A stretch of 64,000 nucleotides of DNA from Octopus vulgaris (Eukaryota), in NCBI GenBank assembly GCA_951406725.2, contig OX597818.1, forward strand, positions 124,558,001 through 124,622,000, given 5' to 3'. How positions within the stretch are numbered: position 1 is the stretch's first letter; each line of letters begins with the position of its first letter. Position numbers and translations under genes: made by a program. The notes beneath the pieces were generated by a model. It was given only the letters and a program-made list of their open reading frames with translations. It was not told the origin of the DNA and did not search any database. Below are positions 15,368 through 63,609 of the stretch, piece by piece.

Positions 15368-15607
15368 TAATTATAACAATGAGGGTCTTTGCAACAGGTT
15401 GCTAGACCACATACCTGAAGTATTAGAAATAGCAGCCAGAAGACTGTTATTTCTTTTACTACAAAAATATGTCCCACAGACAACAGTATCTGTAACTCAC
15501 TATGGCAAAAAAACAAAGAAAAATAACGAAATCAAACAGTCTCCGGTCAATTATGGACGTATACGTTTCTGGATTAAAATCAGAGATTCATTTCCTTCAT
15601 CAACATA
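15368..15607 (-). mobile_element. (TA)n-embedded HHR-bearing element
   Basis: ~240-bp unique insert between two (TA)n tracts, ending in an HHR motif. Confidence 0.6.
15552..15607 (-). ncRNA. Minimal hammerhead ribozyme motif
   Basis: Minus strand reads TATG-TTGATGA-AGGA...TCCA-GAAA-CGTATACG-TC|CATA. Perfect palindromic stem III ACGTATACGT, GUC triplet, C3 changed to U. Confidence 0.65.
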
Positions 15608-17337
15608 TATATATATATATATATATATATATATATATGCATGTGTATACATGCATGTTTGTTGTTGGTGTTATTTAGCCCTAGGTAAATATTGATCATG
15701 CAAATCTATTTTCAAAAGCACTCCAGCCATTTCAATCCCATCCTTTATTTTCAGACATATTCATCTGAAACTAAATTATCCAAGATGCCTCTTTAAGATG
15801 ATAGGGTGTAATTGTAGGAAAATTGCGGTTGCCATTTCTAGCAGACCCAGCGACACAATAAAGTTTTCTTTATTTATTTACTGATTTTCCCTCAGCTCAC
15901 TTATATTTACTTGAATCTACTATGTTTTAGTTTATATTTATAAATTTTGCTTCTATCAACTACATGTGTGTGTGTGTGTGTGCGTATATATATATATATA
16001 TATATAGATGGATAGATAGATAGATTCTGCCAAGGTTGTCTTTGCTTTTCATCCTTCTGGGACAGGTGGTTGTCAATAAAATAAGTACCAGTGGAATGAT
16101 GGTGTCAAAGTAATTGACTACTTCAATCACACAAATTTTCAAGTTTTGTGCTTATAATGGATTAGAAATTGTTTCTTTGTTTTTTGGGGGTTTTTTTCCT
16201 ATTTGCAAGTCACTGCAGACACATCACATACATTCATACATAAATGTATGTATGCGTGCATATGTATATATATATATATATATATATATATATATATGTG
16301 TGTGTGTGTGTGTATGTGTGCATATATATATATATATATATACATACACACACACATACACATATCTGGCAGAAATGTTAGCACGCCGGGCGAAATGCGT
16401 AACCGTATTTCGTCTGTCGTTACATTCCGAGTTCAAATTCCGCCGAGGTCGACTTTGCCTTTCATCCTTTCGGGTCGATAAATTAAGTACCAGTTACGCA
16501 GTGGGGTCGATGTAATCGACTTAATCCCTTTGTCTGTCCTTGTTTGTCCCCTCTGTGTTTAGCCCCTTGTGGGTAGTAAAGAAATATATATATATATATA
16601 TATATATATATACATATATGTATATATATATATATATATATATATATATATATATATATATATATATAGAGAGAGAGAGAGAGAGAGAGAGAGATCATCA
16701 TCATTCTTTAACATCTGTTTTCCATACTGGCATGGTTGGAAAGTTTGACCAGAGGTAGCAGACATAAGCTATTCATTTTAATGTCTAATATCTAAGTAAC
16801 ATACATACATAGGTACGCATACATACATGCATACATACATACATACATACATACATACATACAGGCATACATACATACATTCATACATACATACATACAT
16901 ACATACATACATACATACATACATACATACATACATGCAGTTGCATACGTGCATGTGTGTGTGTTTAACAACCCATCAGATAGTAACACCTCTGCTACCA
17001 CTGCAGAAAACAACTGCCAATACTACAAAGCATTACGTAATTATCCAAAATTCAGGTGAATAATGAAATTTCTTAAAGCACAATATAAAAAGATAACTAT
17101 CTGTATCTGACAGATTAAACTGGATGGTGGGATGTAGTAAGGTATCACTGTTAAACACACTGTAATTAATTAGTTTATTAATGAATTTATTTGGGTTTTT
17201 TTTTTCCTTTTATTTCCATTTGATCAACTGTTCTGGTTTATCGTATTATTAATTTATTGATGCTGTACATATATATATATATACTCGCAGACACAAACAC
17301 ACTCATGTATGCATACATTCATACATGCATATGCCCA

Positions 17338-17560
17338 AGTAAGCACATAAATGTGAAACAAGGTGGGAAGAAATAGTACTCGAATACCGGAGGTAGAGTA
17401 ATATGCTTTATTATTAAAGCTGCAAAAACGTCACAAGAATATCGCAAAAACTGCTACTCAGAGTTTAACATTCCTGTTCATCAGGCACACAACTGCTTGA
17501 TGAACAGCTACATGAAACTCTGAGTAACAGTTTTTTCTGATATTTTTGTGATGTTTTTAC
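17338..17560. mobile_element. Fold-back HHR element, family F1
   Basis: Inverted arms carry HHRs at 17451-17487 (-; TGC-CTGATGA-ACAGGAATGT-TAAAC-TCTGA-GTA-GCA) and 17493-17530 (+). Homologous to the copies at 21250, 22781 and 51256. Flanked by TA-rich repeats. Confidence 0.7.
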
Positions 17561-17593
17561 ATATATACGTATATACATACATATATATATTTT

Positions 17594-17932
17594 TTTTCCA
17601 GAGTGGTCTGTTTTTTTTTGCCGAACCTCAAAAAGTGTGACATTGACTTCACCAACTGGGAGGAAACGGCAAAAAACAGACCACTCTGGAAAACCACTAT
17701 CCATGAAGGAACGGCGAATTTCGAGTCGAAAAGGTCTGCAGAGCTGGAGGAGAAAAGACAACGATGGAAGGAGCGCCAACAACAACCACATGCGACTCTC
17801 CCTTCTGGCTCTAGATGTCCGCACTGTGACCGATCTTTTCGAGCAAGAATTGGTCTTATCAGTCACCTGTGGACTCACCAATAAATTTGCGTGAAGACCA
17901 TCATCCTCAACCTTGAGGGATTGCCATAGTAG
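17594..17932 (+). mobile_element. RTE-clade LINE 3' end
   Basis: Encodes NWEETAKNRPLWKTTIHEG...CPHCDRSFRARIGLISHLWTH*, the RTE C-terminal zinc-finger-like motif. Confidence 0.85.
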
Positions 17933-61094: not shown

Positions 61095-61440
61095 TTGAGA
61101 GAGAGAGTAGCACATGTCACCAAAGTGACACTGGGGTACAAATATACGAAGCCCAATATACCCATCATGACTACCCGTCTGATAAGAGTACACTAGGCAC
61201 ATGCATCACAAGCATGACATGGTGATTTCATATCAAGATAAACAGCACATGGCCTTGCAAGGGAGAGGCTCAGTTAGAATTTTCTTCAAATCAAGTAGCC
61301 CATCCTGCTCAAAAGGTTCTTGTATAAGGTTTGTTTAAGGATGTTGAAAGAAGCACCCATGTTTCCAGAGATAAATTATTCAAACCCTAAAGAATTCTCC
61401 TTCACAACTTCTGCTCATGTTCAGGGATGCACATATCATC
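61095..61440. repeat. Interspersed repeat of unknown class
   Basis: Homologous to ~9035-9330 (GGTACAAATATAC.AAGCCCAA...ATCAAGATAAACAG...AATTATTCAAACC). Confidence 0.65.
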
Positions 61441-61801
61441 AATCACATATCATGTGTCTGTGTTTGTACCCCACTAGTGCTTGACAACCAGTTTTAGTGT
61501 ATTTATGTCCCTGTAACTGAACGGTTCAGCAAAAGAGACTGACAGAATAAGGACCAGACTTTAAAATAAGTACTGGGGTAGATTCGTTTGACTAAAGTTC
61601 TTCAGGACAGTGCCCCAGCATGGCCACAGTTTAATGACTGAAACAAGTAAAAGACATCTGAGCATCAGACACCTGCAGTGTGTGGCTATAGCTCTACTTT
61701 CTCAGTTCAAATCCCACCAATGTCAACTTTGCTTTTCATCTTTCTAGGGTCCAAAAAAATAAAGTACTGGTAAAATACTGGGGTTGATGGTATTTATTAA
61801 A

Positions 61802-62218
61802 CGGCGGAGAGCTGGCAGAAACGTTAGCACATCTGGTGAAATGCTTAGCGGTATTTTGTCTGCCGTTAAGTTGTGAGTTCAAATTCCGCCGAGGTCGACT
61901 TTACCTTTCATCCTTTCAGGGTAGATAAATTAAGTACCATTTACACACTGGGGTCGATGTAATCGACTTAATCCCTTTGTCTGTCCTTGTTTGACCTCTC
62001 TGTGTTTAGCCCCTTGTGGGTAGTAGAAATAGGTATTTCATCTGCCGTTACGTTCTGAGTTCAAATTCCGCCGAGGTCGACTTTGCCTTTCATCCTTTCG
62101 GGGTCGATTAAGTAAGTACCAGTTACGCACTGGGGTCGATGTAATCGACTTAATACCTATGTCTGTCCTTGTTTGTCCCCTCTATGTTTAGCCCCTTGTG
62201 GGTAATAAAGAAATAGAT
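61802..62218 (+). mobile_element. Tandem dimer of SINE family C
   Basis: 61850-62030 is repeated at 62032-62218, nested in an older family C copy. Confidence 0.8.
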
Positions 62219-63109
62219 ATTTATTAACCCCCTTCCCTCAAAATTACGTACCTTTTTCCTAAATTAGAAACTATTACTAAAAAGGCGGTGATCTGATAGA
62301 ATCATTAGCTCAGGAAACAAAATGCTTCGTGGTATTAGTTCCAGCTTTGTATGTTCTGAGTTCAAATCCCACATAGGTCAACTCTGCCTTTCAACCTTTT
62401 GGGGGTTGATAAAATAAAGTACCAGTAATAAGTACCTGCTATGTTCCCTACCTAAAAATTGCTGGCCTTATGCTTAAATTAAAAACAATTATTATTGTTG
62501 TTGTTGCTGCTGTTGTTGTTGTTTCTGTTACTGTCATTATTTGATTTTAATTATTTTCCTATCTCATTTTGTATTTAGTAAAAGCAAAAAAAAAAAAAAA
62601 AAAAAAATTAGTAAAAATTGAAAAAAATAATAATAGAATAAAAAACAGAAACAGAAACATGGTAAACAAAAATTAAAAAATAAAACATTTACAAAACCTT
62701 TATTCATTTATTTATTTAACAGTAAAGGAAATAATGGAATAATTCAAATGAATTAAAGGCTATAATTATTTTGCTAGAGTTTTTCAAATTATTCTTGATG
62801 AGTTTCCTGAATTAGATGGGAAAATAATAATAATAATAATATTAATAATAATAATAATAATAATAATAATAATAATAATAAAAATAATAATGATAATGAT
62901 GATGATGATGATGATAATAATAGTAATAATAAAAATAATAATAATAATAATAATAATAATAATAATAATAATAGTTTCAAATTTTATCACAAAGGCAGTC
63001 ATTTTGTAAGAGGGGATATGTTGATTTCATCAACCCCAGTGGTCGTGGTGGTGGTGGTGGGGGTTGCAGCGGCAGTGATGGAGGGGGTGGAGGGGGTCAT
63101 TATCATATT

Positions 63110-63609
63110 TGCTAGATTCCCTTGTTCGAAAATATAAGGATACAGATCGTGTCATATAGCTAGCTGGAGATGATGTCCCCTGGGGCTAAATTACTGCAAC
63201 ATTCGTCCTAAACCAGGACTACCATGTTATATTGGTAAACAATCTTTACTCCAAAGTACTGTTGCAGAATATCTCTTATTGTGAAACTTAAAAATTGTAA
63301 TTTTCTAATTTATAGTTCAGTGACTTGAAAACTATATATTTCAAATGGGAATTTGGCAGCGCCACTTCTAGCCGAACAATTATTCTGTGCTGATGAAGGG
63401 AAATAACCTGGAAATCATGGTACACAGATATAGTTTTGAGCTGAGTGGGAGTGCTAGATTCCTTTGTTCGAAAATATAAGGACACAGATCATGTCATATA
63501 GCCAGCTGGAGACGATGTCTCCTGGGGCTAAATTACAGCAACATTCGTCCTAAACCAGGACTGCCATGTTATATCTCGCATTGTGAGATTTAAAAAAGTA
63601 ATTTTCTAA
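63110..63609 (+). mobile_element. ~342-bp partial tandem repeat containing one HHR (retrozyme or pLTR-like)
   Basis: 63111-63308 recurs at 63453-63609 with a ~40-bp deletion. The HHR lies at 63384-63428. Confidence 0.7.
63384..63428 (+). ncRNA. Minimal type-I hammerhead ribozyme motif
   Basis: TCTGTG-CTGATGA-AGGGAAATAACCTG-GAAA-TCATGG-TA|CACAGA. 6-bp stem I, canonical core, near-palindromic stem III (ATCATGGT), GUA triplet with predicted cleavage after 63422. Confidence 0.8.

Follow-up and report, generated by a model that had tools for sequence, protein, structure and literature searches.

Hammerhead-bearing 3' ends of Penelope-like elements in Octopus vulgaris and fold-back copies that probably derive from two RNA templates

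A 64-kb stretch of the Octopus vulgaris genome (contig OX597818.1, positions 124,558,001 to 124,622,000; referred to here as the window) is 35% GC and rich in (TA)n tracts, and it comes from a genome of 2.8 Gb in 227 contigs. It contains 12 short elements that are 3' ends, or pseudo-long terminal repeats (pLTRs), and that group into eight families, A to H. Our reading, which we hold to be quite probable, is that these are the ends of Penelope-like elements (PLEs) with minimal type I hammerheads and that the fold-backs among them, in which two copies of an end lie in inverted orientation, were made by copying two RNA templates at one staggered cut. PLE hammerheads with the type I order in pLTRs are already on record (Cervera and De la Pena 2014, PMC4209133); this and the other papers cited below were available in part, and what is said of them applies to those parts.

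Window elements and their hammerhead motifs

All 12 elements had been listed in a first-pass annotation of the window, and all are present at the coordinates that it gave. The five pairs of stem I and stem III that it wrote out are also found as written. Its five families become eight when the elements are sorted: A has four members (17338, 21248, 22781, and 51256), D has two (20860 and 21971), and B (15368), C (20073), E (36866), F (63110), G (36297), and H (47698) have one each. The layout that it described, a tail-less inverted arm beside an arm with a tail, holds for the fold-backs, but 15368 is a single arm and 63110 is a partial tandem. The elements are as follows.

15370..15604, minus strand: family B single arm without a tail, flanked on both sides by (TA)n tracts; core 15603-15597 (U3, G8), GAAA 15569-15566, stem III ACGTATACGT, cleavage site after 15556.
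17336..17559: family A (Hydra PLE end) fold-back, decayed, with both cores damaged; tail-bearing arm minus, 17338-17482; tail-less arm plus, 17487-17559.
20068..20334: family C fold-back with a complete motif on the plus arm; core 20223-20229, long stem II, GAAA 20289-20292, stem III ACGATTGT, cleavage site after 20300.
20860..21178: family D fold-back, tail-bearing arm minus and tail-less arm plus; it starts within stem II, so that the 5' half of the core, which longer family D copies have, is absent.
21248..21491: family A fold-back, decayed; inverted arm tail-less, direct arm tail-bearing.
21972..22046: family D mini fold-back, made up of the tail end and, in inverted orientation, 21 nt of the tail-less start; it is without a hammerhead.
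22781..23032, plus strand: family A fold-back; inverted tail-less arm 22781-22860, direct tail-bearing arm to 23032; core 22894-22900 (C4), GAAA 22911-22914, stem III ACTCCGAGT, cleavage site after 22923.
36299..36563: family G, a near-perfect 155-nt hairpin plus a 110-nt tail, laid out like the other fold-backs.
36867..37225: family E fold-back; tail-bearing arm minus, 36867-37067; tail-less arm plus, ~37081-37225; G3:C8, core 37099-37105, GAAA 37125-37128, stem III AATATT, cleavage site after U 37134.
47699..47990: family H fold-back, ending ~100 nt before the hammerhead of the family (seen in loci L177, L277, and L406).
51256..51470: family A fold-back, decayed; tail-bearing arm minus, tail-less arm plus.
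63105..63610, plus strand: family F partial tandem of a closed 352-nt unit without an open reading frame (ORF), with no (TA)n; canonical core 63390-63396, GAAA 63411-63414, stem III ATCATGGT, cleavage site after 63422.

Five of the 12 window copies have a complete type I hammerhead (at 15603 on the minus strand and at 20223, 22894, 37099, and 63390), three are decayed (all family A), and four are without the core (20860, 21971, 36297, and 47698). Longer copies of families D and H elsewhere have the core, and no hammerhead was found in the family G window copy or in 5 other partial matches to that family. The frequency of one per 5 kb given by the first-pass annotation is correct for elements but not for complete motifs, of which there are 5 in 64 kb and 35 per 800 kb.

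Motifs were counted with a descriptor of the minimal type I hammerhead in which core variants are allowed, stems I and II are paired, and stem III is palindromic. The window has 4 matches (22894, 37099, 63390, and 15603 on the minus strand), compared with 0 to 1 in each of 20 local dinucleotide shuffles; the motif at 20223 is complete by eye, but the strict descriptor misses it because its stem I is rich in wobble pairs. Eighty evenly spaced 10-kb stretches, drawn from the genome apart from a region that runs from midway in C3 through most of C6, contain 35 motifs, compared with 1, 0, and 0 in shuffles. This is one motif per 23 kb, or ~120,000 genome-wide (Poisson range, roughly 85,000 to 170,000). 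The axolotl genome is about ten times larger than 2.8 Gb. The count reported for axolotl equals our estimate (PMC7229834). Circularity is avoided by two further tests. With the palindrome filter off, 10 of 12 canonical matches still have a palindromic stem III, and the shuffles give 0 matches. When any base is allowed at positions 3, 4, and 8, C3-G8 or G3-C8 accounts for 37 of 45 matches, compared with 11 of 40 that are Watson-Crick in five shuffles, which yield 8 matches per 800 kb scattered over 27 classes.

The core order, the paired stems I and II, and the paired 3:8 position are those of minimal type I hammerheads, and order, pairing, and palindrome are kept over many unrelated sequence families, which bears out what the first-pass annotation had seen in them. 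In predicted folds, the stem III palindrome pairs between strands in families A, B, and C. Cleavage is predicted to require dimers and to be slow in the variant families. An Rfam scan of the window gave no hammerhead family among the best 150 of 257 weak matches. More hammerhead families, with an unpaired base on either side of stem II, were seen at L193:7555, L194:8784, L215:7246, and L248:5678-6800, the last with three units spaced 561 nt.

Three of the five window cores are noncanonical: family A has C4, family B has U3 with G8 or A8, and family E has G3:C8. A 20-base family E pattern in which any base is allowed at positions 3 and 8 matches exactly at 6,045 places (0 for the reversed control), and the first 100 of these comprise 97 G3/C8, 2 G3/G8, 1 C3/C8, and 0 C3/G8. 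All 7 motif-bearing long E copies are likewise G3:C8. Family E therefore departs from the strict consensus C3/G8 while retaining the 3:8 pair as G3:C8; its cleavage site reads UUU, and its subfamilies vary in loop II with stem II constant. Of 1,633 matches to the window sublineage of family A, the first 100 include 88 with C4; the intact lineage has the canonical core. Overall, the 3:8 pair is retained through C-G, G-C, and U-A swaps. As an engineered change, the G3:C8 swap is known to give partial rescue (PMC11167929, PMC8495972, and PMC3884650), and the natural covariation reported at this pair is U3-A8 (PMC3088659 and PMC4209133). Our searches for a natural G3:C8 gave engineered cases only, outside Lunse 2017 and the supplements of PMC4209133 and the bioRxiv study cited below, which may hold variants; the family E core is absent from the supplement of PMC8557442. 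Judged from these sequences, a naturally fixed G3:C8 core would be an addition to the known class, and we call it new provisionally.

Hammerhead-like motifs were also seen at the 3' ends of two other intact families. One is a 784-aa Neptune-like family with many intact ORFs (L384, L387, L388, L395, L399, and L404), in which the motif has U3-A8, stem II, a palindromic stem III (ACCGGT), and G12-C13-A14 replacing GAA. The other is a 781-aa family (L143 and relatives) with U3-A8 and stem III ACATGT, which has an additional open frame upstream of its reverse transcriptase (RT) frame.

Parent elements

By the continuity of their copies into coding frames, families A and E are the 3' ends of protein-coding PLEs. 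The first-pass annotation had suggested a PLE pLTR origin and a search for RT and GIY-YIG endonuclease ORFs joined to the same termini, and such ORFs were found for both families. Walked upstream, family A reaches >1.6 kb into a Hydra-type endonuclease. A protein search gave 15,509 candidates at first look, and the 150 that were scored include several open frames of 727 aa. These ORFs are flanked on both sides by A-like ends, 85 to 90% identical to 22781, in L301, L302, L303, L311, and L312, and L303 is a tandem in which the tail continues into the next ORF. The 3' untranslated region (UTR) of family A is 1.2 to 1.4 kb. As read in L301, the 727-aa ORF has RWK, DKT, CxCX5C, CxxC, and CxH and no CCHH, which is the definition of Hydra (PMC8557442), and its hammerhead and (TA)n are likewise those of Hydra-clade PLEs; by this motif reading the family A parent belongs to Hydra. 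Pfam gave no match for the 727-aa ORF. Stems I and III of family A are nearly identical in a coral Hydra element (PMC8557442 supplement).

Upstream of family E are an RT motif and a GIY-YIG frame (Pfam PF01541, E=6.7e-5). The E motif is present in 7 of 9 long copies, and in 6 of these it lies 845 to 1,122 nt past the stop of the RT/GIY-YIG frame. The parent has a CX3CX2C linker and CCHH-like residues, where the Neptune/Nematis definition is a CX2-5CxxC linker and CCHH; it may lean to Nematis. The 784-aa Neptune-like family, hinted at by L299 and L391, was rejected as the parent of E: it has its own end, and the E copy in L391 lies within the TA tail of that family. L299:1-1630 is a chimera in which a Neptune-like ORF fragment is joined at ~720 to the 3' UTR and hammerhead of the family E parent. 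Where A, B, C, D, G, and H match near GIY-YIG hits, the orientation is mixed; these cases are read as nested insertions and were also rejected as parents. The end of one PLE family lies within the (TA)n tail of another at L391:2900-3210, L047:950-1060, and L156:6209-6472, which makes TA tracts places for nested insertion.

Family F is a closed 352-nt unit (spacing, 350 to 353 nt) with a longest stop-free frame of 73 aa, and family B is a closed unit of ~550 nt, self-closing in L034, L037, L038, and L051, with a longest frame of 102 aa. No RT/GIY-YIG ORF was found for B or F in 30 loci each. Both are thus ORF-less head-to-tail units with a type I hammerhead, a trait of non-LTR retrozymes. The first-pass description of the elements as non-autonomous is apt for B and F, but not for A and E.

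Fold-back anatomy and the number of templates

The 3' ends of the two arms lie at the flanks of a fold-back, and the 5' ends meet in the middle, where the arms adjoin each other at a junction that differs from copy to copy. Five loci with the junction and flanks of L282 (L284, L357, L358, L360, and L364), duplicate hits of one insertion, the tandem L072, and L352 were dropped before counting. This gave 54 E fold-backs, of which 49 could be scored, and 39 A fold-backs, of which 34 could be scored (five unscoreable ends each), so that the inverted partial copies expected by the first-pass annotation are plentiful. Its proposed (TA)n check was positive as well: (TA)4 lies at one or both ends of 38 of 61 position-chosen E insertions, compared with 5.2% of random 24-nt windows. 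At targets other than (TA)n (L283, L293, and L078), one duplication of 9 to 14 nt encloses the arm pair, which indicates a single insertion event.

Long inverted repeats adjoining TA could also suggest miniature inverted-repeat transposable elements (MITEs) or other DNA-transposon derivatives in which the motifs occur by chance. However, the fixed terminal inverted repeats, constant interior, and fixed duplication of such elements are not found. The arms abut, the inner junctions vary, the duplications range from 9 to 14 nt, solo and tandem forms exist, the sequence continues into RT/GIY-YIG ORFs, and 35 motifs stand against 0 to 1 in shuffles. What is found instead are PLE traits: partial tandems, an inverted 5'-truncated copy, an optional tail, and variable target duplication or microsatellite targeting. 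As the first-pass annotation had anticipated, the MITE interpretation is refuted for A, B, E, and F, and we give it next to no probability.

Each family has two 3' ends with a tail between them (~60 nt in E, 70 in A, and 95 in B), which is longer than the 30 to 40 nt described for PLEs. The tail is on exactly one arm in 48/49 E fold-backs (31/32 of those chosen by position), 34/34 A fold-backs (15/15), and 7/8 B fold-backs. In contrast, solo E copies are mixed, 22 with the tail and 9 without, and the one-tail rule departs from independence with P < 1e-10. This indicates that the two priming events are coupled and unequal.

The arms of E fold-backs differ at 53 of 369 subfamily-diagnostic sites (14%) and at 183 of 4,447 other sites (4.1%), compared with 45% and 4.3%, respectively, for random E arm pairs. 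By alignment, 7 of 36 E fold-backs (L283, L293, L295, L062, L069, L078, and L083) have a different loop II allele on each arm; a stricter exact reading gives 6 of 26. These discordant arms hold two complete loop II alleles that also occur independently and are several bases and a length change apart. There is no polarity, as the tail-bearing arm has one allele in four cases and the other allele in three. Because a single cDNA that snaps back gives no discordant alleles without later conversion, the mixed arms point to two templates. From these comparisons it is likely that the fold-backs were copied from two templates, which could be two RNAs or both pLTR copies of one tandem transcript.

The competing snap-back explanation holds that one RNA is copied once, that the cDNA folds back to give the second arm, that the endonuclease shortens one end back to the tail boundary, and that later gene conversion accounts for the differences between arms. 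The seven E fold-backs with two independent alleles are difficult to reconcile with this, as is the finding that arms are not homogenized at other sites, where they differ nearly as much as random pairs. The tail also matches the two RT start sites that define the tail in vitro for the Anolis Poseidon element PAc (Frangieh et al. 2024, PMC11167929). The explanation does have support in the agreement of most arm pairs (29/36 in E, and 11/11 in A), in the use of stem I self-complementarity at some A junctions (L011, L026, and L028), and in the published ascription of the tail to endonuclease-mediated resolution (PMC8557442). We consider it improbable.

The upstream ends of copies bear on the nature of the template. 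Among E insertions, 54/61 end no more than 22 nt upstream of the core and 7/61 continue upstream; among A insertions, 23/28 reach no more than 40 nt upstream and 5/28 continue. Both sets were picked for having the core, and ends 3' of the core are visible only in partner arms. Long copies read C-A-G at the E boundary, and of 18 junctions that do not read C, 14 read G (P ~5e-7 versus base composition), which a copied cap would yield; in 7 E junctions the boundary G could derive from the partner arm. We lean toward the view, based on these junctions, that the short copies may be cDNAs that ran off the end of the mRNA leader after priming at the 5' pLTR. We looked for copy ends gathered at the cleavage site and found no pile-up; a single E partner arm ends at it, and three A junctions near the site are explained by stem I homology. 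The small number of ends at the cleavage site suggests that the template was mostly uncut, as is that of PAc in vitro. When reads of four runs (three presumed RNA) were placed on L416, the contigs were fragmented, and neither start or end sites nor a dominant splice joint emerged.

The short A and E copies could alternatively resemble short interspersed nuclear elements (SINEs), being non-autonomous, transcribed from the internal promoter of short masters, and dependent on a borrowed PLE protein, which was the view of the first-pass annotation. Sharp 5' ends and a great surplus of short copies would fit, the non-autonomous view is correct for B and F, and transcription of Drosophila virilis Penelope starts inside the pLTR from an internal promoter (PMC2377424). 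We nevertheless consider this unlikely, because the short copies are colinear, at 95 to 98% identity, with the ends of long E copies that have the ORF, because the 7 E and 5 A insertions noted above continue upstream unbroken, and because no sequence specific to short copies was seen.

In the mechanism that we propose, a paired RT-endonuclease complex would copy two RNAs from either side of a staggered cut in TA- or AT-rich DNA. Priming would occur at the tail end for one strand and at the inner start site for the other. The two cDNAs would usually run off at the RNA 5' end, 7 to 22 nt upstream of the core, and would then be joined through short homologies. The template would be mostly uncut at the time of copying, and the palindromic stem III would pair the two RNAs. 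We put forward only tentatively a more specific version, insertion from a two-RNA particle resembling that of a pseudo-diploid retrovirus, in which stem III pairs the transcripts, one enzyme starts synthesis at the tail end while its partner starts at the inner site, short fold-backs are integrated leader run-offs, and the ribozyme is kept mainly as a pairing signal. If this were true, the pairing role would explain the fixation of cores like the natural G3:C8 in thousands of copies.

Another explanation gives the palindrome a catalytic role only, with no pairing of templates: working dimeric ribozymes would cut tandem transcripts into units, which would be circles for B and F. Its probability falls somewhat short of even, and it can be compatible with the two-template mechanism. 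The 3:8 pair, which is part of the active fold, is kept through its three swaps; dimeric cleavage is described for this class (PMC4209133); and tandem ~350-nt units give circular RNAs in mussels (PMC7229834). On the other hand, successful families carry changes that lower activity (C4, U3 with G8, G3:C8 with the UUU site, and C13 in the intact 784-aa family), most cDNAs pass through the site at which a single E partner arm ends, and cutting alone leaves the one-tail fold-backs unexplained.

Several observations weigh against the two-template mechanism or the PLE assignment on which it builds. At diagnostic sites, E arms are much more alike than random pairs, and the subfamily type agrees in all 11 position-chosen A fold-backs. 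Mixed pairs are a minority and are clear in E only; 4 of the 7 discordant cases come from a similarity-selected set, with 3/17 in the position-chosen set, and later gene conversion may be the source of discordant arms. L271, an E fold-back, has two tails, and L032, a B fold-back, has none. The palindrome is unpaired between strands in the predicted minimum-energy dimers of E and F. The E boundary resembles a 3' splice site (a branch-point-like CTAAC, a pyrimidine run, and AG), so that the pile-up may mark something other than a start site; in D. virilis, helix I is where an intron ends (PMC4209133). A full-length E ORF was not found, the longest open piece being 401 aa and ended by the locus edge, and families C, D, G, and H are without a traced parent.

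Two arrangements of family E were seen besides these. L072 (G000:C28:5211071-5213590) has ~15 tail-less units in tandem, each with its own (TA)n, and mixed loop II alleles. An identical fold-back junction with identical flanks occurs in L282, L284, L357, L358, L360, L364, and L218, which suggests one insertion multiplied within something larger.

Other window features and comparison with known systems

Elsewhere in the window, an open 64-aa stretch at 22506-22697 (minus strand) resembles a host exon and has no Pfam match, and a 5S rRNA-like match at 31475-31585 (minus strand) scores 36.3 bits against a cut-off of 38. Frames at 14824-15249, 17580-17890, and 35501-35857 resemble protein C-terminal pieces that we take to be those of long interspersed nuclear elements. 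There are at least 15 copies of a ~240-nt SINE-like repeat (at 2645-2890, 8716-8995, 23715-23960, 61791-62218, and others) and, at 57136-59381, a low-complexity tandem repeat with ~144-nt periodicity.

The elements are like the PLE hammerheads of PMC4209133 in their type I order, the palindrome at positions 15.2-16.2, an additional base following A9 in several families, many families per genome, mostly solo copies, opposite-strand pairs 100 to 700 bp apart, and U3-A8 variant. They differ in number, up to ~9,000 per genome there compared with the ~120,000 estimated here, with descriptors that also differ, and G3:C8 is not mentioned in the available part of that paper. Similarly, the natural core variants in the available part of Perreault et al. 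2011 (PMC3088659) include U3-A8 and U4C, and G3:C8 is not among them. An octopus Hydra family with a hammerhead and a (TA)n preference has already been described (Craig et al. 2021, PMC8557442 supplement), but octopus Hydra-1 has another hammerhead, and the family A lineage with its C4 core is not that entry. An annotation of PLEs in an octopus genome makes no mention of hammerheads in its available part (PMC13282606).

The PAc protein, predicted to be dimeric, nicks both strands and extends them, with uncut RNA as its template (PMC11167929). In that system an engineered C3G/G8C change partly restores cleavage, whereas G3:C8 is natural in family E, and the available part of the paper contains no genomic count of one-tail fold-backs or mixed-allele arms. 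Families F (352 nt) and B (~550 nt) are like metazoan non-LTR retrozymes, which have been proposed to be non-autonomous PLE derivatives (PMC7229834; bioRxiv 10.64898/2026.07.22.740005), in being ORF-less and head-to-tail with a type I hammerhead. Unlike those retrozymes, B and F mostly occur as one, two, or three units, with inverted arms and with tails of the PLE type, and B is longer and has U3 with G8 or A8. A literature search, judged without full texts, gave nothing on point for a two-RNA PLE model or for hammerheads in octopus, and no precedent was found for the one-tail rule, mixed-allele arms, or a stop just upstream of the ribozyme.

The inverted ends and tails of PLEs and the purpose of their hammerheads are stated open questions (PMC8557442 and PMC11167929). 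Tens of thousands of short, young fold-backs record both priming events, which makes the two-template question countable in silico, and PLE ends of this kind could be misfiled as MITEs in repeat libraries. Compared with these systems, the class of element is already known, and what is added here is a G3:C8 core fixed in nature, motifs at very high density, and genomic evidence that can be counted for coupled insertion from two templates, which are sometimes mixed.

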